IMG/VR virus record: IMGVR_UViG_3300026518_000008 | Location: 29,164-93,163 of that record | Direction: 5' to 3' (one strand) | DNA length: 64,000 bases | Source: a virus | Shown: positions 3,230 to 63,996 of the stretch, piece by piece | Position numbering within the stretch: the first letter of the stretch is position 1 | Layout of the letters: each line of letters starts with the position of its first letter | Translations under genes and position numbers: made by a program | The notes under the pieces: model-generated | Seen by the model: the letters and a program-made list of their open reading frames with translations, nothing else | What the model was told of the DNA's origin: nothing | Databases searched by the model: none

Positions 3230-3243
3230 TTCTCATCCTTTAC

Positions 3244-3296
3244 TGACAACTGTCAGTTGTCAAATGTATTATACCAGTTACCACATAGAATGTCAA
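3244..3296 (-). promoter_or_regulatory. consensus sigma70 promoter with downstream palindromic operator
   Basis: Minus-strand TTGACA (3296-3291), 17-nt spacer, TATAAT (3273-3268) with extended TG; perfect inverted repeat TGACAACTG-T-CAGTTGTCA at 3244-3262. Confidence 0.8.
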
Positions 3297-43782: not shown

Positions 43783-46020
43783 ATGAATGTTACGAAACAT
43801 GATGGTTCATCAGAGCCATTAGATATTAACAAACTTACAAATAGTCTTGAATGGGCAGGAGATGGCTTACAGGTATCTATGTCTGATGTAGAGATGTCTA
43901 TGAATTTACATTTCTATGATGGAATTACTACCTCTGATATCCTAGATACTACTATCAAGACGTGTAGAGACTTATCTAGTCTAAAATCACCAGATTACGA
44001 CACTATGGGTGCTAGACTTGTTATGCAGAAACTGTATAAGGCTGCGTATCAGTCTACTACTCCAGTATCACTTATGGATTATCTAGACCAGATGATATCA
44101 GATGGATTTTATTCAGATGCAGTAACTGATTCATTTACAGAACTAGAGATTGATGTACTTAGTAGATACCTTGACAATGGTAGAGATTTTACATTTACTT
44201 TATCTGGTATAGAGAAATTTATTGACTCATATTTTATTAGAGGATGCAACGAGACACCACAGATGTTGTTTATGGCAGTTGCTATGGACACATTCAGAGA
44301 CTATCATACAGATAGACTTGACTATATCAAATTGCTTTATGACAAGTTATCTCGATTTGAGATTTCACTTCCATCACCTGAGATGACAGCATTGCGTACA
44401 GATTCCACTGATTACGCTTCATGTATCATTATTCGTTTTGGAGATATGATTCGTTCATGGACTGAGGGAAAATCAGCACTTATAAAACATACAGTTGCTT
44501 CAGCTGGAATTGGAGTAGATATTGCAGATGTGGCATCTGCAGGCGACCTTGTTAAGGATGGGAAGATTGTTCACTCTGGCAAGGTAAAACTTATGAGATC
44601 TTTAGACGCTGATATTCAGACTAGTTCTCAGATGAATCGAAGAGGACAAGCAGTCACATATGTTAACCTATTTGATCCAGAGATTCGTCATGTCTTATCT
44701 CTGAAATCACCTCGTACAGCTATTGAACAAAGAATTCAGGATCTGAAGCATGGTATCAAGATCTCAGGCTATCTCTATCATCGTATGGCACATGATATGC
44801 CTATATATTTATTCAGCTCTAGACAGTTTCCAGATGTACACAATTCATTTGGAACTAAGGATTCTCAGGAGTTTCAGATTGCATATGAGGCAGCTATTGA
44901 TACTGCACTTGCAGATAATCCTCTACACCCTTACATCTCTGGTTCTGAATTGATGGAACTATTTGCCTCAGAGAGATTTGAGAATGGTATATACTATATT
45001 ATGAATGTCGACCACTCGAATACGAATTCATCTTGGAAGAAAATTGTCCGTCAGGCAAATATCTGTGTTGAGTTCCTGTCGCCTATAGAGCCTATTGACG
45101 AGCAGTTTCCAGACAGACCAGACATTGGTGTTTGTGTATTATCTAACATCAATCAGGCTACTATATCTATTGAACAATTACCAGAGGCTTGTGATCTACT
45201 TGTTCGCATGCAGTCACATATTATGCTTCGTCAGGAGCATCCTACTTCTCAGGCTAACGCTTATGTTAAGACATATAGAGATATTGGTATTGGATTTGGT
45301 AGTCATGCCCATTGGCTTGCTAAGAATGGATGGAAATATGGTGAGCAAGATGCACTAGAGGCTCACTATCATTGGATGGAGGCATTTCAGTATCACCTTA
45401 TGCTTTCTAGTACATATCTTGCTGAGGAGCTTGGTAGAGCACCAGGATTTGCAGATACTACATATTCTGATTTAGTGATGCCACATGATCGTTGCAGTCA
45501 GTCAGCTATGGCAGAGCTATTTCCAGATGGAATTGAGTTGAGACAGGATTGGGATTACCTCAGAACCAGGATAGGGAGATTTGGCATGTTCAATTGTGGA
45601 TTCTCTATGGTCCCACCGGGTGAGACTAGTTCGATCATTGGAAACATGACATCAGGACTTGAGCCTATCAGAGACTTGATGACTATTAAATCTGGAAAAT
45701 CTATATCTATTAAACAGATTGCTCCAGGATATCCAGAGTTTTCCCAGTCATATGATACAGCTTTTGATAGAGAAATCACACAGGATTACTTACGACATGT
45801 AGCAGTAACACAGATGTGGATTGATAAATCTATTTCTGCAAATACATACTACAATCCAGAGCTATATCCAAATGGAAAAGTTCCAATAAAAACACTGATA
45901 AGAGATATATACTTTGGATATAAACTAGGTATGAAGACATTTTATTACAACAACGTAAAATCTCCAGATGAATTTACTATAGAACAGCATGCATGTGCAG
46001 GCGGAGGATGTGAGTTATGA
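43783..46020 (+). CDS. nrdA: class Ia ribonucleotide reductase alpha subunit
   Basis: ATP cone (VTKHDG), ETPQ, ASC, ANICVE, VCVL, PGETSS, KTFYY, C-terminal CAGGGC. Confidence 0.97.
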   Translation: MNVTKHDGSSEPLDINKLTNSLEWAGDGLQVSMSDVEMSMNLHFYDGITTSDILDTTIKTCRDLSSLKSPDYDTMGARLVMQKLYKAAYQSTTPVSLMDYLDQMISDGFYSDAVTDSFTELEIDVLSRYLDNGRDFTFTLSGIEKFIDSYFIRGCNETPQMLFMAVAMDTFRDYHTDRLDYIKLLYDKLSRFEISLPSPEMTALRTDSTDYASCIIIRFGDMIRSWTEGKSALIKHTVASAGIGVDIADVASAGDLVKDGKIVHSGKVKLMRSLDADIQTSSQMNRRGQAVTYVNLFDPEIRHVLSLKSPRTAIEQRIQDLKHGIKISGYLYHRMAHDMPIYLFSSRQFPDVHNSFGTKDSQEFQIAYEAAIDTALADNPLHPYISGSELMELFASERFENGIYYIMNVDHSNTNSSWKKIVRQANICVEFLSPIEPIDEQFPDRPDIGVCVLSNINQATISIEQLPEACDLLVRMQSHIMLRQEHPTSQANAYVKTYRDIGIGFGSHAHWLAKNGWKYGEQDALEAHYHWMEAFQYHLMLSSTYLAEELGRAPGFADTTYSDLVMPHDRCSQSAMAELFPDGIELRQDWDYLRTRIGRFGMFNCGFSMVPPGETSSIIGNMTSGLEPIRDLMTIKSGKSISIKQIAPGYPEFSQSYDTAFDREITQDYLRHVAVTQMWIDKSISANTYYNPELYPNGKVPIKTLIRDIYFGYKLGMKTFYYNNVKSPDEFTIEQHACAGGGCEL

Positions 46021-47135
46021 TTTTTACAGATAAACCTATTGATTTTACCAAAGAACCATTATTTTTTGGCTCTGGACGAAATATTGCCAGAGTAGATCTT
46101 GATGTATTTCCAGAGATTAGATCACTCTACGAGAAACTCAGAGCCCAGCTTTGGTTTCCTACAGATTTCTCACTGAAACAAGATGCGATTGATTATGTTA
46201 CGATGTCCAAGGACAAGCAGTTGCTTTTTCTGAAGAATTTGAAATTTCAGACGCTTCTTGATTCACTTGCTACTCGTACTGTACTTGAGATATTCATGCC
46301 TATGACTACAAATCCTCAGCTTGAGGAGTGGTGGGTTCTGCATGGCTTCACTGAGTCTATTCACAGCAACAGCTATGCTGAGATCATCAAGGCTCTTCCA
46401 GTAGACGCTAGAGCGATCTTTGATGATATCATGATTAATCCAGCTATACTCAGCAGAGCAGAGAAGATTGTTGCTATATTCAATCATACAGTTACATTAA
46501 ATGCAGTTTATGCTACTGATAAAGCTTCTGATGGACTACATCTATTGAAATACAACACCGATGAGCACAAAAGATCTTTTCTTCTTTCTATATACGCGTT
46601 GAATATACTTGAGGGAGGGCTATTCCAGTCATCTTTCATTACATCATTTGCATTTGCAGAGAATGGACTCATGGAGGGTACATCAAAGATTATTGCTAAG
46701 ATTTCGAATGACGAAGGAGTTCATTGTGAACTTTCTTTCTATAGTCTCCAGCAATTATCTACTGATACTGCATGGTCACATATATTTCATGATGTTAGAG
46801 ATGATGCTATACAGATGTATAGAGATGTTTATTCAGCAGACCTTGAATGGGTAGATTATCTATTTCCAGACGGATCACAGATGTTAGGATTGAATGCTAA
46901 AATTTTGAAACAGTATATTGCGTTCAATATGAATAACTTAGTTAGTGTAGTTGGATTTGAGCCATTCCTTGAACAGATATTCAATCCTGTTACATGGTCT
47001 TCAAAATATACTGACATCTCGAAACAACAGATTGCACAGAATGAGTCAGACGGGAACTCATATCTTCTAGGAGTTATCGACAAAGACATGTCTAGAGACG
47101 ATTGGTCGGATATTACAGACATAATGGGATATTGA
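46017..47135 (+). CDS. nrdB: class Ia ribonucleotide reductase beta subunit
   Basis: QTLLDS, ESIHSNSY, LEG..F..SF, DEGVH. Confidence 0.97.
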   Translation: MIFTDKPIDFTKEPLFFGSGRNIARVDLDVFPEIRSLYEKLRAQLWFPTDFSLKQDAIDYVTMSKDKQLLFLKNLKFQTLLDSLATRTVLEIFMPMTTNPQLEEWWVLHGFTESIHSNSYAEIIKALPVDARAIFDDIMINPAILSRAEKIVAIFNHTVTLNAVYATDKASDGLHLLKYNTDEHKRSFLLSIYALNILEGGLFQSSFITSFAFAENGLMEGTSKIIAKISNDEGVHCELSFYSLQQLSTDTAWSHIFHDVRDDAIQMYRDVYSADLEWVDYLFPDGSQMLGLNAKILKQYIAFNMNNLVSVVGFEPFLEQIFNPVTWSSKYTDISKQQIAQNESDGNSYLLGVIDKDMSRDDWSDITDIMGY

Positions 47136-48192: not shown

Positions 48193-48435
48193 ATGGAGCA
48201 TTTTATTATTGGATTTGCAGTATTCTTCAATGGTGCAGTCATTCTTATGAAACTAAATCTTGCTAGATATTTTGACGCAGCATTTGACACAGCATTCTTA
48301 GTTGCGTTGAGCTATGTATTTGGGGGCAGTTTTGATGGTCTTGTTGCATCTACAGTTGCATCTGCATTAATGTCTATATTTCTATTCTTTTATCGTCCAA
48401 AATTTTTGGACGAAATTAGGAGGGAGCTTAGTTAG
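48193..48435 (+). CDS. small multi-pass membrane protein
   Basis: Two to three hydrophobic segments and a charged C-terminus; last gene of the rightward arm. Confidence 0.6.
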   Translation: MEHFIIGFAVFFNGAVILMKLNLARYFDAAFDTAFLVALSYVFGGSFDGLVASTVASALMSIFLFFYRPKFLDEIRRELS

Positions 48436-51400
48436 TATCTCAGTATATGAGGTACTATAGTACGCTCTACAGTATCCATTATTGGAGGCATATAGAATAG
48501 ATGAGTTGGGCCTTTTACAATTATTGATTTTTCTGCTATATCATCTGGATCATAGCCTATTGTTTCATCCATTAATTCCTGTCCCAATAATGCCATTAGG
48601 AATCTTACAGGTCTTTCTGTTACTCCATCTTTTATTACTTTCTGTATTCTCCATGCGTATTTCGTGAACATTGCTAGTCCCATGTCGTTTGCATATTGCA
48701 CTAGAGCACTATCTGGCTTTGTATAGTTTATGAACGCTTCTCGTATATTTACCATGAGCCTAGCTTTCATTTCATTCAGCTCTTTTGTATTCATTTTTCT
48801 ATTATTCTTTGTATAAAATCTTCTTTGAGCTCTTTCTTGTTCTAGATAGTATTGTGCATATCTTGCTACAAAATCTGACTTTTGAGTTCCATGCATCATT
48901 GCTTTAAACACCCATGTTTTCTCAGTTAGAAACATCCAGTTTCCAGCAAATTTTAATATCTCTGGAGCTCCTTCGAATTTCTCTCCCATAGCATTTACTA
49001 TTCTTGAGCTTGACTTCATATCTTCTAGGTTTGCATCTTCTGCGATTGGCTGGTACAGTCCCTCTTCTATCAGTTCATGAGCAGCATTTTCTTTCATATC
49101 TGACTTTAGCCTCATCATCTCTTTCATTTCAGCACTAGTTGCTATTCCAGAGTCTATTTTTGCTTGTAGTTTTACTACTTCTGCATTTGCTTTTGTATAC
49201 TCATTTATAGCTTTGAGACCATCTAATTGTAGTTTTGCTATAGCTATTGGACTATGTCCAAGTTGCACACTATACATCAGATTCGATATTATATTATTCA
49301 GTAGGACTCCTGGGGTTCTTATTATTATATCCACTTTAGATATAGCTACTATCTCCTTCCATATTTCCTCAGCCAATTTTATCATTGTTTTTATCACCCT
49401 AGGCATCATATTTACACCTTTGGCATCTATTATGCTAAGATCTCTTACACCGAATATATCCAGCAGCATATCTTGTCTTACATGCAGTCCTTTTTTGTAT
49501 ATTATATTTCCGCCTTCATCTGTTTCTTCCATTTTATCTATCTGCTTTTTTATGTCCGTAGGTAGAGCATTATATATTTTTCTTATCGATTCATCATTTG
49601 AGTACTTACTTACTTTTATATAGTTGTGTCCATTTCTACCAGCTTTATATCCAGTATAATTTTCTTCCATATCTAGCTTCATTTCTTCAAATGCTATTTG
49701 ATTGATCTTCCTTGACTCTTCCATATCCGTCTCATGAGACCATATTCTTCCTACGCTCTCACCTATGCTTTGTTTTAGAGATAGATTTGTTTCTTTGAAT
49801 TCTGTTCCTATTTCATACCTCATATCTACTAGGCTTCCATATTCGTCATATACTGCTCTTGATAGATTATCTGATTCTAGTATTCCTATAGCGTTTCCAT
49901 TCATCATGCTTTCTACGTCGCTATTTATATCCATTGATGCTTTTGCTTTAGCTTGTTTTATTTTATTTTGTATATTATTATCACCACTCTTTAGTAGTAT
50001 CTCATATATTCCTATCCCGCCATCTTTGTCATCCGTGAACCTAACTGTACTACGGTTTAGGTTTTGGAGATGGTGTAGCCCATTGACATATATTGCCATT
50101 TCTCCCGTTGATGTGTCCCAGCTATCTTTTCCTAACTTCTCTCTCAACGTGTATCCGTTTCTTTCCATTCTACTTTTATCTTTTATACTTGCTATTTGTA
50201 CTGTTTTAAAATCATCTAACGTATCTCTTGAATATCCTTTTTTGTATCTCGCTATTCCTACAGCTTCGTATCTTCTTTTTGCCCCAGCTCTTGTTGATTT
50301 TATTGTATTTTCTACAGCTTCTCCATCTGATTTTATCAGCTCTGCAGTTCTCTGATTTACGCTTGGATCTGTATATTTTATATATTCCAGTGTTGCCAAT
50401 TGATCTACTAGTATTTCTATTTGCTTCTGGGTTTCACCGCCTCTACTTTGATATTTTGTTCCATGCATTTTTGATATTGCTTCTGCATTTATATGCTGTG
50501 CCTTTTTTGATTTTCCTGTCAGCATATACTTGCCTAGCCCATGTGCTTGTGCTATATAGTAGTTTGCTTTTCTTTTATTACTTGATATATCTTTTATTTT
50601 TTTCTGTATTTCTATTGCCATATTCCTTCTTGCTACATCATCACTCAGTATGTTCTCTACTTCGTCTATTCCTATTTGTTCAGATAATGCTCCTATATCA
50701 CCTTTTACTATTGTCCCATATAGAGCTTTCTTATCACTATTTTTCAGCTTCTTACTGAATTGTTCTGTTATTAATGCAGATATTGTTAATGCTTGATCTT
50801 CACGATGCTTATCTACTTGCAGTGACGCCAGCATCATTTTTTGCCATTTCTCAGAATACTGATCTATATCTCTAAAATGTCTCATTAGAGTTTGTATCGT
50901 TCCCTCTTCTTTCATCCCGAACATATGCATTATCTGAGTTAGTTCTCCAGTTAATGCTGGATTTGTTGTCAGCTGATACCAGTTTGCAGCTATCCATTTC
51001 ATTTGCTTCCATTTTGGTGCAGTTGGACTTGGTCTCTCAGTTAGAGCAGCTCTCTTTGCTGCATTCTCACCTTTGTGTTGCCATTTTATGAATCTATCTT
51101 GGATATTGTCTATAGCTGTAGTTATCTTTCCAATTCTATTCTCATTTAGCTTTTTCATTGCTACATTGTTTGCAGCTGATAGCTCATTGAACAGTTTCAT
51201 TGCAAGAGCATCACCTTTCATTCCTGGTTTAATATTGTACGCCTTATCCAGAACCAGGGAGATTAGTCTATGTAGATACTCTACTATTGTATCATATATA
51301 CTCATACCTTTTGTATCTACTTTGTCTCTCTTTACATCTATTTCAGATAGTGCTTTCATTACCTTTTCATTTGTTACCGAATGTACTACGAACTCTTCTA

Positions 51401-52457
51401 GTGAGTGTTCGCTACTATTTAGATAGTGCCATAGTGCTTCGGCTTGTCTATATTCAGCTTTATAGTTTATATTCACATCTGACATCAGCATCTCTGGAGT
51501 TATATACTTCATTGTTTTTCGTCTTAGTTTTATTAGTTCTGTTTTTATATGCTTTATTCCAGGTATATCACTTGCTAGAGCATATCCTATTGCCCCATGT
51601 CCTAATTCATGAGCATATGTTTCTGCTGCAGATTTCGTTCCATTTATTACAGGTCTTTCTTGAGTTAGCGAGAGATATATCCCTGGTTCTGAGTCGACTC
51701 TTATTGCACCTTTATTTTGTACTTGGATTGGATTATTGTCTATCATTACTGGCATATTTGGTATTACTTTTGATAGCATTGACGTCATATTCGATACGAA
51801 TTCTCGCAGATACTTCTCATGAGATTCATTTTCTCCAGTGCTGTCTAGTTCTATTAACTTGTCCATTACTTTATTCAACTTCTCTGGATCATTTATGTAT
51901 TCACTATTCAGTATTGTATCGAATGTTGTGTCGTGCACCCATCCAGTTCCGTCTTGACTTGGATCCGACATTCTAAATCTTTTTAGATCTTCTATATTCC
52001 ACTGAGATTTTGCACCATTTTTCCCATATCCATTTGAGTCTACATGTATATTTTTCTTTTTTCCACCAGGAGTTACATAGTCTATTTCGTATCCACCATC
52101 CATATCAGGTTGCACCATTGTTACCAATTGTACATCTTCACGCTTGTTGTCTCCAGTGTAGTATTGTCTTCTCACAGATATTGCTTCAGGGGCTTCACCG
52201 AGCTTTTCCTCATTCATTATATCTTCTGCTTGTGCATATTCTTCACTTGGGTTATTTCCACGATACATGCTTACACCTTGTTGTGAGGGATTACTATTTA
52301 CCTCACTTACTTGCTTATTCAGAACCAGTGGAGGTAGTTTTTTCATGAGTTCTGCTTTCTTCTCATTTATGTACAGCAGCTCCTCTGGAGTTGCATGTTT
52401 TGCTAATTTTGTCAGTTGGTTCATTGTGTATCTTATCCCGCAGCTTGCATTACTCAT
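48432..52457 (-). CDS. virion protein resembling the C-terminal domain of N4-type virion RNA polymerase, with a zincin-like HExxH motif
   Basis: AHELGH...EEFV; only one Cys; GGAG RBS before ATG 52457, 1 nt after the polymerase stop; homology inferred from position, size and recalled motifs. Confidence 0.65.
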   Translation of the reverse strand: MSNASCGIRYTMNQLTKLAKHATPEELLYINEKKAELMKKLPPLVLNKQVSEVNSNPSQQGVSMYRGNNPSEEYAQAEDIMNEEKLGEAPEAISVRRQYYTGDNKREDVQLVTMVQPDMDGGYEIDYVTPGGKKKNIHVDSNGYGKNGAKSQWNIEDLKRFRMSDPSQDGTGWVHDTTFDTILNSEYINDPEKLNKVMDKLIELDSTGENESHEKYLREFVSNMTSMLSKVIPNMPVMIDNNPIQVQNKGAIRVDSEPGIYLSLTQERPVINGTKSAAETYAHELGHGAIGYALASDIPGIKHIKTELIKLRRKTMKYITPEMLMSDVNINYKAEYRQAEALWHYLNSSEHSLEEFVVHSVTNEKVMKALSEIDVKRDKVDTKGMSIYDTIVEYLHRLISLVLDKAYNIKPGMKGDALAMKLFNELSAANNVAMKKLNENRIGKITTAIDNIQDRFIKWQHKGENAAKRAALTERPSPTAPKWKQMKWIAANWYQLTTNPALTGELTQIMHMFGMKEEGTIQTLMRHFRDIDQYSEKWQKMMLASLQVDKHREDQALTISALITEQFSKKLKNSDKKALYGTIVKGDIGALSEQIGIDEVENILSDDVARRNMAIEIQKKIKDISSNKRKANYYIAQAHGLGKYMLTGKSKKAQHINAEAISKMHGTKYQSRGGETQKQIEILVDQLATLEYIKYTDPSVNQRTAELIKSDGEAVENTIKSTRAGAKRRYEAVGIARYKKGYSRDTLDDFKTVQIASIKDKSRMERNGYTLREKLGKDSWDTSTGEMAIYVNGLHHLQNLNRSTVRFTDDKDGGIGIYEILLKSGDNNIQNKIKQAKAKASMDINSDVESMMNGNAIGILESDNLSRAVYDEYGSLVDMRYEIGTEFKETNLSLKQSIGESVGRIWSHETDMEESRKINQIAFEEMKLDMEENYTGYKAGRNGHNYIKVSKYSNDESIRKIYNALPTDIKKQIDKMEETDEGGNIIYKKGLHVRQDMLLDIFGVRDLSIIDAKGVNMMPRVIKTMIKLAEEIWKEIVAISKVDIIIRTPGVLLNNIISNLMYSVQLGHSPIAIAKLQLDGLKAINEYTKANAEVVKLQAKIDSGIATSAEMKEMMRLKSDMKENAAHELIEEGLYQPIAEDANLEDMKSSSRIVNAMGEKFEGAPEILKFAGNWMFLTEKTWVFKAMMHGTQKSDFVARYAQYYLEQERAQRRFYTKNNRKMNTKELNEMKARLMVNIREAFINYTKPDSALVQYANDMGLAMFTKYAWRIQKVIKDGVTERPVRFLMALLGQELMDETIGYDPDDIAEKSIIVKGPTHLFYMPPIMDTVERTIVPHILRY

Positions 52458-52458
52458 A

Positions 52459-55400
52459 CTATTCTCCACATTTCTTAGCTAGGTTTATATTTTTGCTTTT
52501 CGCTAGTTTTTGTATTATATCTTCTTTCTGCTTACCGTCTACTTGCGTACCTTTAGTTTTGTATCCAGTATTTTCTGTAAATACGAATTGCATTACATTG
52601 AGATTCTGTTTTGCCATATTATCTCTATTGCCTTGTATTTCTTTTGAGCTTTCTTCCATTATGCTGAGATGTTTTGCTACAGATTTTGATTTCCATTTTA
52701 CTTTTTTTCCACTATCGTCTATCCAGAATATTTTCTTTCCGCCAGTTGACTTTAGATTATCTTTTGCATTATCTGAGTTTATTTTTGCCAGTGGATTTAT
52801 TTTCTGCTCATGTGTTCCGTGCTTTTGCATATATTCACTATGTGCGATTATTGACTCTTTTAATGCATTTTTACTAGCTTCATACATGTTATATTGACTA
52901 TTCAGCACGCTGAACCACTTGTTTAGACTTCGTACTGCTGAGTGCATATTTGTCACGCCTCCTACAGCTGCATCGAATACTGGATTGATTCCATCGTTCT
53001 CATTGATTGTCATTGCCATATTTGCACCATCTATTGTCTGAGTTAGTCCTACTGCTGCTGCTGACATTGCTTCTGCTAGAGTTCTCTCTATCGACTGTAT
53101 GTTTATTGATGCTTGTTCTTCTCCTATGAGCTTTACATTTACATCTCTCATATCCTCTCTTGATTTTATCATTGAGTTGAATATTGCCACACCATCTTCT
53201 CTGCTAGTTGATAGTGGTCCAGCTACAATTGGGAATATCGCTCTTATTTCTGGTCTATTTGTTATTTTTTCTAGTTGAGCTATTGATATGTTTCCGCCTT
53301 TGCCTATTTCCATTTCTAGCACTTCCATATACATTCTCATTTGATATTTCGATGCATCATTCATTTGATTACTGTATTCAGCTGCTTGTCCTAGCTCAGA
53401 TTCTAATATCTCCGTGATTGCTTCTCCATATGTACTTCTTACTATTAATTCTAGTCTTTCTGCCAGCGGATACGATAGATTTGATTTGTCGCTATCTATT
53501 GAGTTGTTTCTCAGGAATTCTCTATATTCATTGTGATGACTTTCTGGTATTCCTAGCGAATTCATTATTATTTTTCCTTGCTTGCTTTCATTTACTATAT
53601 CATCTGGTACATTTTTCATCATTACTCTTGCTAGTGATTTTATTATTGAGTTCATTCCAGCTGAGTAGTTAAACGTCATGAACGGATCTTTTAGCAGCTC
53701 TCTCATTGATGAGTCTATTTCATCTACTATCTTTTCTTCGACTACATCAGAACCAGGGATGTAGGGTATTAGTGCATCGAGTTGTTTTTCGAATCCTTCA
53801 TATTCTTCTGTGTCTCCATTCTCTAATCCTTCAGCTCTTCTTTTTTTTATCCATGCTTTACCATTTGCTATTATATCTTTTATTGCTAATAGCTTTTGAG
53901 CAAGTCCTTCGTAACTATCCAGCTGACCAGGTCTTGACAGTATATCATTCGTACTCATCCCTGGTTCTGCATCAGCGTCTACTATTCCTACGCGTTTCTG
54001 CCATTCGCCATCTTCATCTTCTACCATACCTTGTGCTACTTTGATTGCAAATCCATTTGTCTTTCCATCTACTTCTAGCACTAGATTTGTATTGAACTTT
54101 CCATCTTCTTGCATCTGATATGCTTGTACTGCATTTAGTGCTGACATTATATGTCCTAGGTGATCTACTTTTATCTTCACTATTTCATTATTGTGTTTTA
54201 TCCCTATAGATTTTTCTCCAGATTTTATCGCAGACATTACTGTGCTTCGTAGTTTTTTTGCGGGTATGTCTAGTATTTGCTCTGCCAGTTCTTCTCTTTT
54301 TTTTGTTTCGATTCCATCTACTTTTATTCCGAACGCTTGACCTATGCCATAGAGGAATGCTTCTCTATGTTCATTGTTTGACATATCAGCTTCTGCGTAG
54401 CTCTCTTTTCCAGTTACTAGCCATCTTTGTATATGTTTTTGAGATTGAGGATCCAGTATATTGCCATCTAGGAACATTCTATTTGTTTTTGACACGAACC
54501 AGTCGAAATATATTTCATTATCTATTTCTCCAGATTCTATCTTTTGATATACTTCCTCTAGTCCATTCCATTCATTTTCCAGCTGGAAGTTCTTGCCTTT
54601 TTGTGCTTCTATTGTATCATGAGAGTATTTTTTTGATTTTTTCATTTGATCTACATTTTTCCACCCCATTATCTCTAGAGCTTTTTCTTTTCCTATCTCC
54701 ATTAGGTTTTGCATGCCGTTCATATCTATATTGTATTCTTGATTTGTTTGTTTGTTTACAGATTCTTGCATTGCAGGATATACATCAGAGTGAGGATTGT
54801 TTTTTACTTTTGATACATGATTTGTCATATCCTTTTTCTTTGTTCTATATGTTTTTATCATTTTGTCTACGCCAACTTCTGTGTCTAGTCTTTCTAGCTT
54901 TCTTTTTGCTAGCTTTGTCTCTCCTATCATATTGTATTCATCTGATATTTTTACCATAGGCATACTTGCATCTTTATTTATGGCATCTATTTCTTTTTTA
55001 CTTTTTCCTTGTAGTTGAGCTATATATTTTGCATTTACACTGCTTTGACTATGCTGTTTTATTTTACCTAGTGCTCTCATATTTTGGAACACCATCTCGC
55101 CTAGACCTTGTTTTATTGCTATGTAGTCTGCATTTTTTCCATTTGGATTCTGTATTATCCCTAGTTGTTTCATTATTGATTCACCAGCACTATTCGTGAA
55201 ATACTTCAGTGGAATTCCTTGTCCTAGAGTTTCCATTATATCTGCAGTTATATTTTCTTCATTTATACCATAGTAGCTAGCTATATCTTTAGGTCTTGCC
55301 ATTTGTATTCTACTCATGTTATTTGCTAGTATGTCTTGGGTTACTGTTGCTATTGCTCCTACTACATTCCAGTTCAAATCTCCGCTTGCATTATACAGTA

Positions 55401-58400
55401 GTGCTATCGCTGGATTGTCATACAGGGCGAATTTTGGATCTTGTATTTTTACGTCTTTGTTTGGAGTTATTCTTGGAGCAGGTATACTTTGTAGTAGATT
55501 GTTTCCAGTGATTACTGATTCTGACCATATCATACTATTTTCACCATGCTCAGCTATATTTATTGATCCTAGTGATGACTTACTTTTTCCTTCTTTAGTT
55601 GTTATCATATCAGGTATATATATATTTCTAGTCGTACGAATGTAGTTTCCATTTTTATCTTTTATGTATTGTCCATTTTTATCTTTTTCTCTGACAGACA
55701 TAGTTTTTTGTGCATCTCCATAATTATTTATTACTACAGAGTTTAGTCCAGTTGTCTTTTGACTATCTATCAGATCTTGTGTCTTGTACACTTTTCCTAT
55801 TTCTGCTTTGAGCTCTTTGACTCTTTTTATCATCTTGTCACGAGTTTTGAACAGTTTTGGTTTTGACTTTTGTATTGCATCTCTAGTATTTTTATTTGCT
55901 TTTTGTCTTGCATAGTCCATAGCTCGTTTTGAATTTATTGTTGCTTGTTTTTGTTGTATGTCTTTTATTCTTGCATTGATTTCATCTACTATTTTTTGTT
56001 GAGCTTTTGCTTTTTTGAGTATATTTCGTAGTTGTCCAGCTTTATCAGTGAATGCTTTCCATGCTTTATATCTTCCATCTTTTGTGAGCAGATCGTTTAG
56101 ATGTGCATATATCTCTTTTCCTAGTTTTTTTCCTAGTTGCGTTATTCTATCAGCTAGAGTATTGATTGACTTTGATTCATCATTTATTTCATTTGCTTTT
56201 TCTTGATTGAATCCTTTCATCATTCGCTTTGTATGGTTGTCCCATTTTAACATTGCTTTTTTTGCTTGATTCTTTATTGATTTGAGCTTTATTTTTTCTT
56301 TTTCCAGCTTTTTTATTTCAGCTTTATATTCATCGCTCAGCTTTTTTTGCTTTTCTTTGAATTCAGATTTTGCTTCTTTGCTATTTAGTCTTTCATATAT
56401 CTTCTGAGCATCTTCCAATAGTGAGTCTATCTGTGTATTTTTTGACTCTAGAGTTTTTCGTATCACCTCATGCTCTTTTTCTATTTTCTTTTCCAGCTCA
56501 TTTATTTCTTTGATTCTTTCTTCTGCTTTACTTAGTTCTACCTTTGGTTCTTCGGTTGGTTTAGTTTTAGTTTCTGTTTCAGTATCATTATTTGCTTCAT
56601 CTTTTATTTCTGTATTTATATCTGATTTTGTATCTGATTTTGTATCTTGATTGATTACTTCAGAACCAGAGGCACGAGGTATCATTCCAGTTGTGTCGCC
56701 TTCCATCTCTTCTAGCATTGGATTTGATTCTTGAGCAGTTGTTCTACCTTCGTATTTGTATCCCTGGTTCTGAGGTGATACTTCTTTTTTCGCATCATTA
56801 TCTTCTTTGTTGCTTATGTCGAGCTTGTCATGATTTACTGCTGATAGCATTAGGTCTTGCTCTTCTTTTAGTGCATTTATTACATTTTGCACAGAGCTAT
56901 TGCTTGCCCCTATACCTGCAGCCATCATTTGCCTAGTTGCTTCTTTTTTATTTGCAGTGCTTTGTTTTTTGTCAGTGCTATACAGCTCAGAGCTTAGATC
57001 AAGATCTGGAGATATCTTTCCTTCTTCTTGAGCTATTTTCATGTCTCCTATTGTTATAGTTCCATTTTGAGATACATAGTCAGACCCCAGTTGATCATGT
57101 GCTAGATCAGTCAGTGTTTCTCTCGCATTTAGTTGGAATTCTCCTTGATTTTTTCCATATATATCTTGATTTGAATATTGAGTTTTTATCATTGAGTCTT
57201 TAGACAGAGCATGATTGCTTTTATATATATCTATTGCATTTTGTATTTTTGGATTTTTAGACTTTGTTATTTTCATATACTCATATGGTTTTAGTCTATG
57301 TTCTTCTGCCATTGCTATTTGTAGTGCATTCTTATATGGTATTTGAGCTGCTTTTGCGAATGCCACTATATTATCATTCACTACGCTTTTTGCTTCTTCT
57401 TGGGCAGCAATGAGTTTATTGGTCTTATCTTGTTGAACACCAGCGAACCTATGCATTTCAGATTTCCACTTATTCTTTTCGTCTTCAGTTTCTGACTCCA
57501 TCATATTTTTATAGTAGTCAATATATCCTAGTCTATTTTCTCTTTTGAATCCATCAACTTCTACACGTTTTCCTACTTGTCTCATATCTTCTCTTAGGCC
57601 GACATATTTTTTTGCCATCTCCACAGAATTGTTGTATTCTTCTTCTTTCATACCGTTTTTTAGTGCGAACGATTTAAACTCATCCGTATCTATACTTTTT
57701 AGCTCTTCTCTTGTTCCCATTCCTAGCATTGCTTTACGTATTATATTGTCTGTTTCTCTAGGAGTTGCACCTTTTAGTATTTTGTTTATTTCTTCATAGT
57801 CTCCATGTGCAGTATTGTATGCAGCTTCTGCAACATATGGCATTGTTACACTATTGTCTACTCTATTTTTTATTCTGAGTAGTGCATCTTTTTCTGGACC
57901 ATCTTCCATTGCTACTATTTTTTGTTTGAGCTCTCTACTCTTTTTGAATCCCTCTAGTGGATCAGTTTGCCCAATAGATTCCATATCATATATATCTTTT
58001 CTTGTCTGATTTCCTAGATTTGACATTTGTAGATTGTCATCTTCTTCTATTGTTTGAGTATTTATTGCTGCTTGAGCTTGTTCTTCATTGTATTTTTCTC
58101 TTTCTTCTTGATTCATATTTGCTATCTTATCTTCTTGTGCATTTTTCTTTTTTTTGTCATTCATGTCTTTAACTGCTGGTATTACTTCTGCACCACCAGA
58201 TATTATTGCACCTGGACCCATTGCTGCTCCGAATGATTGGAACATCTCTCTTCCTAGTGTTCCATCGTAGAGTTCTTTTTCTGCATTTGTTCCAAATTTT
58301 TCACTGAATGATTGCACTATCTGCTGAGCTGTTTCAGTTATGCCTTCATATCCAGCCTTGCCAGATACCTTGAGTGCTTTTTGTGCGAATGTTTTTACTA

Positions 58401-59934
58401 GAGCTTTTGCCGACTTCTCTGTTCCATTTTCTATTACATTTCCTATTAGCTTTTGGACATAGTTTGTGTTTCCTATTAGCTCGTCTACACCTATTTTTTC
58501 TAGCCCCATTTGTAGAGCAGCTCCTACGCCAGCTTGCAGTCTTTTTAAATAGCCTATATCTGATTTACTTGTGTTTTTTTGTACTTCAGACATTGATTCA
58601 TTTGCCATACCTATTGTGGTTATTGCCATTCCGACTGGATTTCTTGTAGCTATCATATATACTGCACTTTCAGCAGCCCATTCTGGCCCTGCAGTTATCA
58701 TACCTTTCACTAGAGATCCTGCAGCATTCATAATATTTTCTGTATTTGGATTTTCAATCATTTTGTCATATGATTTTCCTAGGTCTTCTGTTGCTAGATT
58801 TGTTCTTGTATTATCATATCCATATTCTTGTGGAGTTTTATATTTGTCAGCCCATATAAAATCTCCATTTTTGACATATCCTTTTAATTCTTTATCCAGT
58901 ATTGCGTTTCTTTCTGCTTCAGTTCTATTTGGGTTATATACTTCATCAATATTTTTTCCTATCCTTATACCAGCATCAACTATTGCATCTCCGAATTCTG
59001 CTGCAGTTCTTCCTACGCCGAATTGTAGAGCATCTACTAGATTGCCTACCCTTGAACTACTTTGTACAGTATCTTTGAGCTGCATTTGTCTTAATTGCTC
59101 ATCCGTGTACCCTGACATACTCCCTGCGTTGTTTACTTCAGAACCAGGGATGTTGTTTCTTGCTTTATCTGGAGTAAGATTCATTCTAGGATCTATTGCA
59201 TGTTCTTGAGTTACATTTTCTCCAGCATTATTTCCTAGGCTTGCCATACTTCTGTTTGATCCAGATGCTAGCCCTTGATATAGGTTTGATTGTATTGGTA
59301 TGTCTAGAGGTATATATTGTTTTTGCCCATATTCATCCACAGTATTTCCAGTTAGATTCACTGGTTCTGCATTAGGTATGAATGGTGCCATCCATCTTTC
59401 TGTTCCAGCATCTTCTTTTGTTCTTGCTAGGTCTGATAGCTTTTGTATTGTTTGCATATTTGAGACATCAGACAGATCTTGATTCGTTACTTGGTCTATC
59501 GGCTTGCCTACTATGTCTGCTACTTGTTGTAGCTGTCCAGTTTTCCATCTACTTTTTGCTATCTCTTCTTTTGGAGTGTTGCTTCTTTCTGTTGTTATAT
59601 CGTATGTTCCATCTTTATTTTTATTATATAGATAGTGATATCCCTCTATTGCATCATAGTCATATGCATTTGGAGCAGTCACTTCCCTAGTTGATTTTCT
59701 TCTTTCTCCATCTATCTCTTGACTCTTTAGATATGGAGTATCTGCATCTGTCATCCCAGTCAGAGTATCTGGAGTCCAATTTGCTTTAGTCCTATCTGCA
59801 TCTGTCGCCAGAGCATCTACTTTTGATTTATTTAGGTTTTGTGCTTTTGATGATGATACTGGTGCTTCATTTAGAGCATCAATTGTCGTATCTACATTTC
59901 TTTGTAGGAGTTGTGCCAGAGAGTAATTTGCCAT
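52459..59934 (-). CDS. virion-encapsidated single-subunit RNA polymerase (N4 vRNAP-like), 2491 aa
   Basis: NRM...DPQ; motif A LEVDGKTNG; motif B RELLKDPFMTFNYSAG; IDG; motif C PVFDA; one Cys in the whole chain. Confidence 0.9.
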   Translation of the reverse strand: MANYSLAQLLQRNVDTTIDALNEAPVSSSKAQNLNKSKVDALATDADRTKANWTPDTLTGMTDADTPYLKSQEIDGERRKSTREVTAPNAYDYDAIEGYHYLYNKNKDGTYDITTERSNTPKEEIAKSRWKTGQLQQVADIVGKPIDQVTNQDLSDVSNMQTIQKLSDLARTKEDAGTERWMAPFIPNAEPVNLTGNTVDEYGQKQYIPLDIPIQSNLYQGLASGSNRSMASLGNNAGENVTQEHAIDPRMNLTPDKARNNIPGSEVNNAGSMSGYTDEQLRQMQLKDTVQSSSRVGNLVDALQFGVGRTAAEFGDAIVDAGIRIGKNIDEVYNPNRTEAERNAILDKELKGYVKNGDFIWADKYKTPQEYGYDNTRTNLATEDLGKSYDKMIENPNTENIMNAAGSLVKGMITAGPEWAAESAVYMIATRNPVGMAITTIGMANESMSEVQKNTSKSDIGYLKRLQAGVGAALQMGLEKIGVDELIGNTNYVQKLIGNVIENGTEKSAKALVKTFAQKALKVSGKAGYEGITETAQQIVQSFSEKFGTNAEKELYDGTLGREMFQSFGAAMGPGAIISGGAEVIPAVKDMNDKKKKNAQEDKIANMNQEEREKYNEEQAQAAINTQTIEEDDNLQMSNLGNQTRKDIYDMESIGQTDPLEGFKKSRELKQKIVAMEDGPEKDALLRIKNRVDNSVTMPYVAEAAYNTAHGDYEEINKILKGATPRETDNIIRKAMLGMGTREELKSIDTDEFKSFALKNGMKEEEYNNSVEMAKKYVGLREDMRQVGKRVEVDGFKRENRLGYIDYYKNMMESETEDEKNKWKSEMHRFAGVQQDKTNKLIAAQEEAKSVVNDNIVAFAKAAQIPYKNALQIAMAEEHRLKPYEYMKITKSKNPKIQNAIDIYKSNHALSKDSMIKTQYSNQDIYGKNQGEFQLNARETLTDLAHDQLGSDYVSQNGTITIGDMKIAQEEGKISPDLDLSSELYSTDKKQSTANKKEATRQMMAAGIGASNSSVQNVINALKEEQDLMLSAVNHDKLDISNKEDNDAKKEVSPQNQGYKYEGRTTAQESNPMLEEMEGDTTGMIPRASGSEVINQDTKSDTKSDINTEIKDEANNDTETETKTKPTEEPKVELSKAEERIKEINELEKKIEKEHEVIRKTLESKNTQIDSLLEDAQKIYERLNSKEAKSEFKEKQKKLSDEYKAEIKKLEKEKIKLKSIKNQAKKAMLKWDNHTKRMMKGFNQEKANEINDESKSINTLADRITQLGKKLGKEIYAHLNDLLTKDGRYKAWKAFTDKAGQLRNILKKAKAQQKIVDEINARIKDIQQKQATINSKRAMDYARQKANKNTRDAIQKSKPKLFKTRDKMIKRVKELKAEIGKVYKTQDLIDSQKTTGLNSVVINNYGDAQKTMSVREKDKNGQYIKDKNGNYIRTTRNIYIPDMITTKEGKSKSSLGSINIAEHGENSMIWSESVITGNNLLQSIPAPRITPNKDVKIQDPKFALYDNPAIALLYNASGDLNWNVVGAIATVTQDILANNMSRIQMARPKDIASYYGINEENITADIMETLGQGIPLKYFTNSAGESIMKQLGIIQNPNGKNADYIAIKQGLGEMVFQNMRALGKIKQHSQSSVNAKYIAQLQGKSKKEIDAINKDASMPMVKISDEYNMIGETKLAKRKLERLDTEVGVDKMIKTYRTKKKDMTNHVSKVKNNPHSDVYPAMQESVNKQTNQEYNIDMNGMQNLMEIGKEKALEIMGWKNVDQMKKSKKYSHDTIEAQKGKNFQLENEWNGLEEVYQKIESGEIDNEIYFDWFVSKTNRMFLDGNILDPQSQKHIQRWLVTGKESYAEADMSNNEHREAFLYGIGQAFGIKVDGIETKKREELAEQILDIPAKKLRSTVMSAIKSGEKSIGIKHNNEIVKIKVDHLGHIMSALNAVQAYQMQEDGKFNTNLVLEVDGKTNGFAIKVAQGMVEDEDGEWQKRVGIVDADAEPGMSTNDILSRPGQLDSYEGLAQKLLAIKDIIANGKAWIKKRRAEGLENGDTEEYEGFEKQLDALIPYIPGSDVVEEKIVDEIDSSMRELLKDPFMTFNYSAGMNSIIKSLARVMMKNVPDDIVNESKQGKIIMNSLGIPESHHNEYREFLRNNSIDSDKSNLSYPLAERLELIVRSTYGEAITEILESELGQAAEYSNQMNDASKYQMRMYMEVLEMEIGKGGNISIAQLEKITNRPEIRAIFPIVAGPLSTSREDGVAIFNSMIKSREDMRDVNVKLIGEEQASINIQSIERTLAEAMSAAAVGLTQTIDGANMAMTINENDGINPVFDAAVGGVTNMHSAVRSLNKWFSVLNSQYNMYEASKNALKESIIAHSEYMQKHGTHEQKINPLAKINSDNAKDNLKSTGGKKIFWIDDSGKKVKWKSKSVAKHLSIMEESSKEIQGNRDNMAKQNLNVMQFVFTENTGYKTKGTQVDGKQKEDIIQKLAKSKNINLAKKCGE

Positions 59935-59991: not shown

Positions 59992-61707
59992 TTATCTTAT
60001 TATTGGATTTCTTTTTTTTGCTTTCACTTGAGTCATTTTTTCTATTGCTTGATCTATTGACATCAGTGGATTAATTTTCATTATAGCATCTATTGTTTTC
60101 TTTTCATCTTCTGTAGCATCTTCGTTGAGCCATTTTAGTCTTTGTTTTTGTGTCATCTTTGCTTTTTCTAGTTTAGCATTTTCTTGTGACATTTTACTAA
60201 ATATTCCTCCATACTGTCCACTATTTTTCATTTCTTCTATTTTTGGCATGTCTGGTACTATACTATTTATAAATTTCGCAATTTTTTCTTTCCCTGATGT
60301 ATGTTCTTCTTTCGGAACATCTCTGAATCCATCCAGAGAGAATGGATCTAGTGGCTTTGATATTGAATCTGGACTATTGTTTGTTACGTACTGTGCTTCA
60401 GTCGTATTTTTATTTGTTTCTGATGGATCATTATTTACATTACCGTCTTTTACTTCAGAACCAGGGATAGATGGGTTTTTCTTGCCTGTTGATGAGTTTG
60501 TTAGTATAGACATTAGTTCATCATATGCTTCTTGCTTTGGAGTCTTTCTTGTTGCATATTTTGCATTTACTGCCTTTATTGCTTTTCCTCTTTTTTTCAG
60601 CAGACTGGACAGCTTATTTTCTTGACTAGATACATTTCCTGGTATTATTTTCACACCAGTTTTTGATCTTGCTTGATACCCGTTATTTTTTAGTGTATTG
60701 ATATAGTTATTTTGATTTATCGCATCCCACTTTGCTTTTGCTTTACTGTCTGATGTATTGACATTATTTTCTTTGAACTTATCTAGTCTATCATTCATTA
60801 TATTTAGACCATCTGCTTTTGTTATCCAGCTACCATTGTCATTTTGTAGTGCATATTGGAATGCCTGATCTATCTGCTCTGGAGACCATTTTTGTTTCAC
60901 AGCTAGATTATTTATTTTATCAGATACTTCATTATATCCAATACCTGACCAGTCAGTTGTTTTTGATAGTATACCCTTCCATTTTTGATCTAGTAGTTTT
61001 CTGTCTATATCTGGGTTTCCAGTGTATCGTATTGATTTTCCAGCACCTTTTCCGTTTCCACTACTTTTTGCTGCATATGATGTAGATTTCAGAGCTTTAT
61101 CTGTTACTGAACCTTTGTTTATCAGAGATGCTTGTTTATTTGTTATATAATCTATATTTTCTAGCTCTGTTTTTTGTTGAGCAGCTAGGAGTGCCTTTCT
61201 GTTTGCATCTTTTATTACAGCAGCATCGTATCCTGTTTTTGCTAGAGTATATGCATCTTTATTTCCAGAGTTTAGAGCAGCAGTGAGTTTATACGCAGAG
61301 GATTGCAGATCATTTTCGTTCGTTAGTGCATCTAGCTTTCCACTTTTTAGTATTGCGTTTCCTAGTCCTGTCTCATCTACTTTTGGACCAGTTCCATTAT
61401 CACTAGATACTAGAGCAGCATTAATTGCATTTCCATACTGTTCAGCTTTTGAGTCAGCTCCTAGTAGTATATCTCTCACTTCTTGCTGATGTTTTTGTCT
61501 CAGCAGTTCTGGCTGGGCTAGACTCTTCTCTCTGTACGCTACATCTTCATCTCGTTTTTGTTGTGCTAGTGTAAATCTTTCTTTGTCTAGTCTTCTCGCA
61601 TCTATGTTTCTGAAACTATTCATTGCTGTTTGGAACATTATTGCAGGAGAATTATATGCATTTTGCACATTTGGTGCGTTAAAACTATATGGCTGATTTA
61701 TACTCAT
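59992..61707 (-). CDS. internal virion/ejection protein
   Basis: Cys-free, K/N/Q-rich 571 aa directly upstream of the vRNAP gene. Confidence 0.65.
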   Translation of the reverse strand: MSINQPYSFNAPNVQNAYNSPAIMFQTAMNSFRNIDARRLDKERFTLAQQKRDEDVAYREKSLAQPELLRQKHQQEVRDILLGADSKAEQYGNAINAALVSSDNGTGPKVDETGLGNAILKSGKLDALTNENDLQSSAYKLTAALNSGNKDAYTLAKTGYDAAVIKDANRKALLAAQQKTELENIDYITNKQASLINKGSVTDKALKSTSYAAKSSGNGKGAGKSIRYTGNPDIDRKLLDQKWKGILSKTTDWSGIGYNEVSDKINNLAVKQKWSPEQIDQAFQYALQNDNGSWITKADGLNIMNDRLDKFKENNVNTSDSKAKAKWDAINQNNYINTLKNNGYQARSKTGVKIIPGNVSSQENKLSSLLKKRGKAIKAVNAKYATRKTPKQEAYDELMSILTNSSTGKKNPSIPGSEVKDGNVNNDPSETNKNTTEAQYVTNNSPDSISKPLDPFSLDGFRDVPKEEHTSGKEKIAKFINSIVPDMPKIEEMKNSGQYGGIFSKMSQENAKLEKAKMTQKQRLKWLNEDATEDEKKTIDAIMKINPLMSIDQAIEKMTQVKAKKRNPIIR

Positions 61708-61722
61708 GTCTTTTCCTTTTGC

Positions 61723-62304
61723 TTATGCTTGTGCGAATGCAGCATTTGCTGCTTTTGATACTCTTTGTCTTCTTTTATATTCTGCATCGTTCATTGAATA
61801 CTGTTGTTCTAGATTTTTTCTTTGATCATCTGACGTTTTTTTGTTGCTATTTATCATTTGATTTGTGAAATACAGTCCACCAATTCCACTAGCTATGTCT
61901 ACTGCATTTCCTAGATTGTCCATTGAGAACATACTGCTTTTACCTCCACTATCTGTAGTTCCATCAGATAGAGACTTTCCTAGACCTTCAAGTTCTCCTT
62001 GGTTCATTCCGTTTACTGAATTTGCAAATTCAGGATTATTCATATAGTTATCAGATAACTCTTGTGTAGTCATTGCTCTTGAGCCGCCATAAAAATTCCC
62101 TACTGTAGCAACTGGATGACTTCCTCCAGATATAGATGGATTTGTACTAAAATATGATCTATCTGTATTGTATCCTTTATACTCACCATGTCTATCGTTT
62201 TGTGCAATAAAATAATCAGATATATCTTTATCACTATATCCTCTCATTTTCATATTATTAATCAAATCACTAGTTCCTGTGTTCGTATCATCTATGCTTT
62301 CCAT
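61723..62304 (-). CDS. small internal virion/pilot protein
   Basis: Cys-free; Gly-rich hydrophobic segment (LGNAVDIASGIGGLY) followed by a Q/N-rich helix. Confidence 0.6.
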   Translation of the reverse strand: MESIDDTNTGTSDLINNMKMRGYSDKDISDYFIAQNDRHGEYKGYNTDRSYFSTNPSISGGSHPVATVGNFYGGSRAMTTQELSDNYMNNPEFANSVNGMNQGELEGLGKSLSDGTTDSGGKSSMFSMDNLGNAVDIASGIGGLYFTNQMINSNKKTSDDQRKNLEQQYSMNDAEYKRRQRVSKAANAAFAQA

Positions 62305-62340
62305 ATCTTTTTCCTTTTCTATGCTAATTTTATTGCAGCC

Positions 62341-62352
62341 ATTATATCATAT
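62341..62352 (-). promoter_or_regulatory. extended -10 promoter
   Basis: Minus-strand ATATGATATAAT upstream of the gene starting at 62304. Confidence 0.55.
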
Positions 62353-62382
62353 TTTTACTTTATCCCTGGTTCTGGAGTATGG

Positions 62383-63996
62383 CTAGAAATACTTGTGTGT
62401 TGCTCCATCTATGAGACCTTGTGTCATGTTGTATGGTACTTGGTCCATCTTCTCATTTATTTCTAGGAAATTATATGATTCGAAATTCCATTTTGTAACT
62501 GCATATTTCATTGCAGTTGGCATCTTATCCATCATGAGCTTTTGTTGATTAACCTTTTCTTGCATCTCACTTACTTTTTTATTATTGCTTTGCATTTGTT
62601 GTTTAGCTACATAGTCATAGATTTTCGATGAATAGTTGATAGTAGTAGATACTAGCTCTAGCGTACTCATTTCTGCATATTTTTCTAGTATAGCATCTAC
62701 ACCTTTATCTACTAAATTGTTTAGGATTTCATTTAGTCCTAGGAATGCACCTACATACCCTACAATTGTTAGCATGTCTCCATACATTGCTGCTGCATTT
62801 GGATTACCATATTCTGCTTCATTATATGTTAAAACTCCGAGAGATATGCTTACAGCTAGAGCGAGATATGCATATGCTGCTGCAACTTCAGGAGAAGTAG
62901 CTCCATCTGATAGTACAGTTGCTATTATAGCTATGAATAACAACAATATTCCTAACACCTGTTTCCATGGAGCTACTGGAGTTTTTTCGTAGTCAGTACC
63001 AATCATTTTCCCTACTTCATCAGAAAATTTAACTCCATTATGGTTTATCTTAGTTGCTTGACTTATCACTGCAGGTAGGCTATCTAGATATGATTTTCTC
63101 ACATATTGATTTACTATTGTATATGAATCGCTCATCTCATCATCACCATATTCTCTTGATTGTACGAATTTTTTTGAGTCTATTATATCATTTGACACTA
63201 GAGAGTACACTTCATTTTTTTGTTTAGTTAGTGCATACTCGTAGTTTACTCTAGTTGTACCTCCATATCCATCATCTTCTGTAATTGTAACTGCTTTTTG
63301 ATTATTAGTTCTAGTCTCTATTGCAATTGACACATTATAGTTTGATTTGAGTGAGTAGTCTATCGTAAACGAGTACCATTGTCCATATTTATTTTTGTCC
63401 TTTAGTGTACCATCACTATTCATTATTGCACCACGACCATTTGCATTTATATTTATATCATAGATCTCTTCATCGACATCTAGTAATGCCAGCCACTGAT
63501 CGTTATACTTCATATCATAGTCTATCTTTTCTACATTTGTTGTGTTGAGTTTATTCTTCAGTATTGCTATCTGATCTTTTGATTCTATATTTCTGTACAG
63601 ATCTATATCTGTATCTTTGAATGTGAATATTCTTTTTTTTGTAGTTGAGTATCTATTTACTACCGTAGTTATTTCTGCTATTGACGCATCTTGATGTGTC
63701 TTCCATGGTACTATTTTGTACCATAGCTGACTAACTCCTTTTAGACCACCATTTTCACTTTTCGCATTTATTTTATCTACACTTACACCTATAAGTTTAT
63801 ATATTTTTTTTGCTTGATCTGTCTCTACAGCAGAGCCTTTTCCATTGCTACCATTCCAGAATACGAATATGCTCATTACTTCCACATCAGAACCAGTGGG
63901 GAGTCCAGTAGCATCAGTATCTGGTACTAACATTGTTGGCCATGTACGCATGAACTCACGCTTAAATTTATTACCTCTTTTGTACCTAGAGAGCAC
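62383..63996 (-). CDS. virion protein with transmembrane segments, probably truncated at the window edge
   Basis: Frame is open almost to the window end; several hydrophobic helices in the C-terminal third. Confidence 0.65.
   Translation of the reverse strand: MLSRYKRGNKFKREFMRTWPTMLVPDTDATGLPTGSDVEVMSIFVFWNGSNGKGSAVETDQAKKIYKLIGVSVDKINAKSENGGLKGVSQLWYKIVPWKTHQDASIAEITTVVNRYSTTKKRIFTFKDTDIDLYRNIESKDQIAILKNKLNTTNVEKIDYDMKYNDQWLALLDVDEEIYDININANGRGAIMNSDGTLKDKNKYGQWYSFTIDYSLKSNYNVSIAIETRTNNQKAVTITEDDGYGGTTRVNYEYALTKQKNEVYSLVSNDIIDSKKFVQSREYGDDEMSDSYTIVNQYVRKSYLDSLPAVISQATKINHNGVKFSDEVGKMIGTDYEKTPVAPWKQVLGILLLFIAIIATVLSDGATSPEVAAAYAYLALAVSISLGVLTYNEAEYGNPNAAAMYGDMLTIVGYVGAFLGLNEILNNLVDKGVDAILEKYAEMSTLELVSTTINYSSKIYDYVAKQQMQSNNKKVSEMQEKVNQQKLMMDKMPTAMKYAVTKWNFESYNFLEINEKMDQVPYNMTQGLIDGATHKYF

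Follow-up and report, generated by a model that had tools for sequence, protein, structure and literature searches.

A split N4-type virion RNA polymerase carries conserved cysteines on the facing ends of its two pieces and may be rejoined by a disulfide

In this study, we analyzed a 64,000-nucleotide (nt) stretch of viral DNA, referred to here as the window (bases 29164-93163 of the 93-kb linear IMG/VR viral contig IMGVR_UViG_3300026518_000008), in which a virion RNA polymerase (vRNAP) of the phage N4 type is encoded by two adjacent genes instead of one. The upstream gene specifies the N-piece (P0001), which holds the N-terminal domain (NTD) and the RNA polymerase (RNAP) domain, and the downstream gene specifies the CTD piece (P0002), which holds the C-terminal domain (CTD). 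The chain is cut at the linker between the RNAP domain and the CTD. Each piece has a single cysteine, located at the end that faces the other piece; this placement is strictly conserved among diverged split relatives, and both cysteines are lost on re-fusion. By analogy with a bond seen in another phage, it is likely, with a probability of roughly 0.7, that the two pieces are joined by a disulfide in the virion. Release of the pieces by reduction in the host cytoplasm is plausible.

The two open reading frames (ORFs) encode 2491 and 1341 amino acids (aa). The letters at the junction are TGT GGA GAA TAG T ATG, which leaves a gap of 1 nt, and the CTD-piece gene is read in another frame. The N-piece ends in Cys-Gly-Glu, its only cysteine being residue 2489 of 2491, and the only cysteine of the CTD piece is residue 6. 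An earlier reading of the window, made from its letters alone (the sequence-only reading), had described both genes, with the second starting 1 nt after the stop of the first, and had placed one cysteine per half at the junction; these descriptions were exact. Its estimate that the first protein ends about 140 aa past polymerase motif C was too short, as ~170 aa separate the catalytic Asp from the end. In the other ORFs of the window that reach 150 aa, the cysteine content is 0-3%, mostly 0.3-2.9%, so two cysteines in 3832 aa, both no more than six residues from the junction, are far from chance.

The vRNAP profile PHROG 2206 (3406 positions) was matched by both pieces. N-piece residues 1507-2482 correspond to profile positions 1013-1997 (3e-64), and CTD-piece residues 204-1315 correspond to positions 2274-3377 (2.4e-128). 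Pfam PF21867 (vRNAP_dom_2) also matches N-piece residues 1724-1836 at 1e-7. Judged by these profile alignments, the two genes together are colinear with a full N4-type vRNAP. The N-piece contains a T7-like single-subunit RNAP domain with catalytic motifs A and C, and the CTD piece contains a large C-terminal domain with an HExxH C1 subdomain; the HExxH motif has been described for the C1 subdomain of N4 gp50 (PMC13434306). The sequence-only reading had described N4 vRNAP as a single cysteine-free chain of about 3500 aa, which agrees with gp50 (3500 aa, 0 Cys), and had interpreted the two genes as a split vRNAP. The alignment of the second gene (48432-52457) with the C-terminal part of the vRNAP profile and the colinearity of PHROG 2206 over both pieces bear out this interpretation. 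Members of the gp50 family are single polypeptides of ~3000-3800 aa; here, two ORFs in different frames were found.

The position of the break was located by a MAFFT alignment of 21 sequences: N4, two other cultured fused vRNAPs, six fused metagenomic forms, and 12 split forms. MAFFT was used because pairwise phmmer and BLAST comparisons of the N-piece with N4 were too weak near the junction. The alignment is unreliable at N4 positions 2150-2460, where the HExxH motifs are partly out of register, and only positions 2099-2101 and 949-950 were relied on. In this alignment, the junction of the window corresponds to N4 gp50 residue 2101. Cryo-electron microscopy (cryo-EM) of N4 showed that the RNAP domain ends at residue 2101 and that residues 2102-2123 form a disordered linker (PMC13434306). 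The cut in the gene thus coincides exactly with the linker between the two domains.

Two further regions differ from N4 in length. N-piece residues 1101-1400 (window 55735-56634) form a K/E-rich, helical-looking stretch of ~300 residues, 37-49% of them charged, between the NTD and the polymerase; its N4 counterpart, the 907-1007 linker, is much shorter. In the CTD piece, the first 180-200 residues (residues 1-200; window 51858-52457) have no N4 counterpart and are variable among relatives, and the HExxH motif is found at CTD-piece residue 283, compared with 104 residues into the N4 CTD. These first 200 residues may form a docking head for the tail of the upstream piece.

The cysteine placement was then compared across 131 representatives of the stand-alone CTD piece, which share at most 50% pairwise identity. 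A cysteine lies within the first seven residues in 123 of them, and in 121 this N-terminal cysteine (residue 3-7) is the only one; altogether, the 131 proteins contain 127 cysteines in 183,333 residues. The N-terminal cysteine column is invariant in alignment A1 (40 CTD pieces, 29% mean column identity). On the other side of the break, all 16 homologues of the N-piece have exactly one cysteine, located 1-4 residues from the C-end. Conservation of both terminal cysteines in relatives with the split, which the sequence-only reading had proposed as a check, was thus observed, with one locus (L053) as the exception. The residues surrounding the cysteines show weak preferences, M-[S/A/K]-C-x-[I/L/V/T] at the N-end and [K/E]-[E/K/G]-C-(K) at the C-end, with at most five residues past the C-terminal cysteine. 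Fused relatives mostly lack cysteine. The two fused forms recovered in the N-piece homologue search have none, and neither do N4 gp50, gp51, and gp52 or the vRNAPs of Vibrio phage phi 1 and pYD6-A. Cysteine suppression in ejection proteins has been quantified for Pseudomonas phage DEV (PMC11445570).

Comparison of 80 related viral loci (L numbers), found by a profile scan, provided several natural experiments. Cysteines are present on both facing ends at every junction of two-, three-, and four-piece loci, L053 excepted. Three pieces are encoded in six loci and four in one. Rather than vRNAP fragments, the middle pieces are other enzymes; they carry cysteines at both ends and almost none elsewhere (one has a single internal cysteine). 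An N-terminal cysteine is always lacking in the first piece, as is a C-terminal one in the last. As the outer chain ends never carry cysteine and each break has two, pairing would be head-to-tail rather than like-with-like. In four loci, the middle piece is a Dda/RecD-like SF1 helicase whose only cysteines lie at residue 4-5 and at 4-6 positions from the end; it resembles an additional cargo enzyme inserted into the ejected chain. A fusion of the same helicase to the CTD, P0073 (2183 aa), retains only the N-terminal cysteine. The four-piece locus L046 has a 1293-aa middle piece with DprA-like, DUF7831, NADAR, and 2OG-Fe(II) oxygenase domains and with cysteines only at residues 3 and 1293; it may represent injected anti-defence or repair enzymes. 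The second middle piece of this locus (987 aa) gave a weak methyltransferase match.

The rule also applies to a break at another position. In L027, L035, and L049, the break aligns to N4 949-950, within the NTD-RNAP linker (907-1007), and the cysteine pair is still on the facing ends. In the CTD-core tree, these loci belong to a clade other than that of the window; therefore, this split is independent. In all three, a gene intervenes between the two pieces. Searches of Pfam and PHROG gave no match for these intervening genes, and in two of the three loci they contain internal cysteines. The reverse event was found in L019 (3863-13303), which encodes a fused 3141-aa vRNAP without cysteine and is nested within the split clade beside L007. 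Compared with L007, ~37 tail residues and ~248 head residues are missing, both cysteines among them. A deletion that took out both cysteine-bearing ends and the variable, ~250-aa head of the CTD piece appears to have re-fused L019. The coordinates of these features and of those in the window are listed in Table 1.

Table 1. Features of the split vRNAP locus in the window and of related loci (coordinates without a locus label refer to the window)
Feature	Coordinates	Strand	Basis or remark
N-piece gene (NTD ejection/membrane domain, charged linker, RNA polymerase domain; 2491 aa)	52459..59934	-	ORF; PHROG 2206, Pfam PF21867
CTD-piece gene of the split vRNAP (1341 aa)	48432..52457	-	ORF; PHROG 2206
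TAG stop of the N-piece	52459..52461	-	followed by one base (T), then the CTD-piece ATG at 52455-52457
GGAG Shine-Dalgarno sequence for the CTD-piece gene	52464..52467	-	within the final N-piece codons
Cys2489 codon, sole cysteine of the N-piece	52468..52470	-	third residue from the C-terminus
Cys6 codon, sole cysteine of the CTD piece	52440..52442	-	invariant column in the 40-piece alignment
RNA polymerase domain (N-piece residues 1507-2482)	52489..55416	-	PHROG 2206, alignment
Motif A EVDGKTNG (ExDGxxxG)	54052-54075	-	N-piece residue 1954
Motif C VFDA	52969-52980	-	N-piece residues 2319-2322, aligned with N4 D1948
HELGH (HExxH) of the CTD C1 subdomain	51597..51611	-	CTD-piece residue 283
Three Cys-free genes directly upstream, same orientation (571, 193, and at least 537 aa)	59992..63996	-	N4 gp51/gp52/gp53 positions
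Dda/RecD-like SF1 helicase (816-1010 aa) between RNAP and CTD pieces	L010:3370-5997; L012:6649-9588		also in L028 and L040
Middle pieces of the four-piece locus	L046:2948-6829; L046:6839-9802		
Unrelated gene (434-638 aa) between a Cys-tailed NTD piece and a Cys-headed RNAP+CTD piece	L027:4608-5912; L035:3655-5526; L049:3780-5696		

The same picture might arise from an error in sequencing or assembling a single-chain vRNAP gene, especially as the contig is metagenomic. However, the split recurs in other, independent assemblies, where the N-piece is identical to that of the window and the CTD piece is 99% identical. When 1.8 billion representatives were searched with the CTD piece, 1257 matches were obtained, and the best 150 of these were mostly stand-alone proteins 1200-1500 aa long. 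Scanning viral contigs with the CTD piece as a single sequence found no relatives, whereas the profile scan did. The same gene boundary occurs in more than 120 diverged clusters, and 24 CTD-alone forms, including those of the window and of Alteromonas phage AD45, make up one clade of the CTD-core tree with 99% support. In AD45, a cultured phage, the stop codon was sequenced again, and gel electrophoresis showed two polypeptides, of 270 and 175 kDa (Garcia-Heredia et al. 2013, PMC3821669). Shigella phage pSb-1 offers an example of what such an error may look like. Its vRNAP has been reported as a three-ORF anomaly (PMC10654107), annotated as ORFs of 893, 1453, and 1228 aa (L087, KF620435, 649-11437). 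Unlike the splits in the clade of the window, these pieces have no junction cysteines; they contain 0 Cys, as expected if the breaks are sequence errors, and the breaks are probably frameshift errors rather than a genuine split, so that pSb-1 can serve as a negative control. On the strength of the independent assemblies, the re-sequenced AD45 stop, and the deep conservation, the sequencing error that the sequence-only reading had named as a possible source of the split is effectively refuted.

Programmed read-through or frameshifting could also join both ORFs into one chain, in which case the cysteines would be incidental. The genes of the window are only 1 nt apart, and a 2023 survey treated the AD45 split as a gene-calling or read-through artefact, concatenated the ORFs, and dropped proteins of <2500 aa (PMC10654107). 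Against this, relatives have gaps of -11 to +26 nt, use all three stop codons, and show random frames, and a whole unrelated gene lies between the pieces in L027, L035, and L049. The CTD-piece gene has its own Shine-Dalgarno sequence and ATG, and AD45 virions show two polypeptides (PMC3821669). Joining by read-through would also offer no reason for the conserved cysteines, and we regard it as very improbable. A split intein or trans-splicing was rejected as well; Pfam detected no Hint or intein family in either piece, and the tails beyond the cysteines are only 0-5 residues long.

As for the function of the cysteines, we propose the following mechanism, which supports the suggestion of the sequence-only reading that the halves may be linked end to end by a disulfide and later separated by reduction. 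The vRNAP chain would be cut at the flexible RNAP-CTD linker into a first piece with the NTD and RNAP and a second piece with the CTD. The C-end cysteine of the first and the N-end cysteine of the second would form an intermolecular disulfide in the virion, either inside the capsid or after lysis, and with the remainder of both proteins free of cysteine, no wrong link would be possible. Located near both ends, the bond would give an almost linear, unbranched chain that could be threaded through the tail like a single-chain vRNAP. This fits the beads-on-string exit proposed for N4, in which the vRNAP would leave the capsid loosely folded via a channel of ~35 Å (PMC13434306). Reduction in the host cytoplasm may then release the polymerase from the CTD, which in N4 auto-inhibits the polymerase (PMC13434306). 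In relatives, the same cysteine clasp may string extra cargo enzymes into the thread. The precedent comes from cyanopodophage A4, in which cryo-EM of the pre-ejectosome revealed a disulfide between Cys1715 of the ejection protein gp27 and Cys5 of the ejection protein gp26 (PNAS 2025, PMC12002296). We checked the A4 genome: gp27 (1717 aa) has its sole cysteine at 1715, gp26 (1114 aa) has its sole cysteine at 5, and the two genes are adjacent.

Alternatively, the pieces may be held together non-covalently via the RNAP:CTD interface, with the cysteines serving another use, such as metal bridging, transient attachment to the portal or to some other protein of the virion, or redox sensing. Such an arrangement would be in line with the reducing conditions of the assembly compartment and with the failure to find a thiol oxidase gene in the contig; in N4, the RNAP and CTD indeed form a tight non-covalent complex (PMC13434306). 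This view does not account for the presence of exactly two cysteines per junction, on the facing ends and never on the outer ones, or for the fact that cargo pieces unrelated to vRNAP obey the same rule. In addition, two thiols alone are a poor metal site, and the equivalent A4 pair was seen as a disulfide (PMC12002296). We therefore consider non-covalent joining unlikely, although less so than read-through.

Several observations weigh against the disulfide. The cytoplasm, in which the virion is assembled, is a reducing compartment. No Erv1, thioredoxin, or glutaredoxin gene was detected in the 93-kb contig, the absence of Erv1 being weak evidence, as the control failed in all control genomes. 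Six of the 131 CTD pieces have no cysteine, possibly owing to miscalled starts, and L053 is split without cysteines, in a sequence that contains an ambiguous base. Comparison of A4 gp26 with alignment A1 by hhalign gave a probability of 0.1, that is, no detectable homology to the CTD, and BLAST and hidden Markov model searches likewise gave no match between A4 gp26/gp27 and the pieces of the window; therefore, A4 is a mechanistic precedent or analogy rather than a case of homology. The AD45 gel showed two separate bands, under conditions that were presumably reducing (PMC3821669).

The disulfide reading, if correct, would have wider implications. Terminal-cysteine clasps may be a general modular means by which podophages string separately translated proteins (vRNAP pieces, the SF1 helicase, and the DprA/NADAR/2OG-oxygenase cargo) into a tail-passing thread, with cytoplasmic reduction freeing each enzyme; we give this generalization an even chance. 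If it is true, splitting a giant ejection protein would be a route to deliver several free enzymes and not a defect. With every chain break flanked by the only two cysteines, a simple mechanism would be available for threading a 3500-residue polymerase through a 35-Å tail, and a reducible staple that keeps the thread continuous would explain the purging of cysteine from the rest of the ejected proteins. The cysteine rule tells genuine splits from sequencing errors and restores standing to a large clade that has been dropped or patched in surveys, one of which left out proteins of <2500 aa and concatenated the split ORFs. It also points to natural modular loading of extra enzymes into the phage particle for co-injection. 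The AD45 split itself is already known (PMC3821669); our literature search found no paper stating a terminal-cysteine rule for split vRNAPs.

The genes surrounding the vRNAP were also considered. A PHROG search gave no match for the three Cys-free genes directly upstream, and their assignment to gp51-gp53 is by position only; they are probably very diverged ejection proteins. Homology, cysteine depletion, and these Cys-free neighbours suggest that the virion contains the vRNAP of the window and ejects it into the host. Genes for the large and small subunits of a class Ia (oxygen-dependent) ribonucleotide reductase (43783-47135) immediately precede the vRNAP genes, on the opposite strand. A phage-encoded aerobic enzyme of this class is a weak hint of an oxic habitat. 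A megablast search of the 11.5-kb region against phage records gave no match.

Compared with known systems, the window is closest in architecture to N4 gp50 and other Schitoviridae vRNAPs, such as gp71 of Pseudomonas phage DEV. Like these, it has an NTD, a T7-like RNAP, and an HExxH-containing CTD (PMC13434306, PMC11445570), and it is almost Cys-free and located downstream of Cys-free genes, here putative ejection genes. However, its identity to them is only ~20-25%, and in place of one uncut 3500-aa chain with 0 Cys, the RNAP-CTD linker is cut and each new end has one cysteine. The split itself is shared with the Alteromonas phages vB_AmaP_AD45-P1..P4 (Efbeekayvirus). In AD45-P1, ORF127 and ORF126 encode 2495 and 1409 aa, the split position is that of the window, the CTD falls in the same clade, and the sole cysteines of the pieces are residue 2493 of 2495 and residue 4. 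The two CTDs share ~24% identity, and the ORFs of AD45-P1 are separated by 7 nt, compared with 1 nt in the window. The AD45 study concluded from the presence of cysteines that the protein is not injected, and it made no mention of their location at the termini (PMC3821669). Split inteins also divide a large protein into pieces with a cysteine at the new N-terminus of the downstream piece, but the upstream cysteine of the window is at the very C-end and not at an intein start. In Anabaena phage A-4L (A4), as in the window, the only cysteine of the upstream protein is near its C-end and that of the downstream protein is near its N-end. A4 belongs to a different family (Saffermanviridae), gp27 and gp26 are not a polymerase, and the bond between them was presented without a claim of a general rule (PMC12002296).

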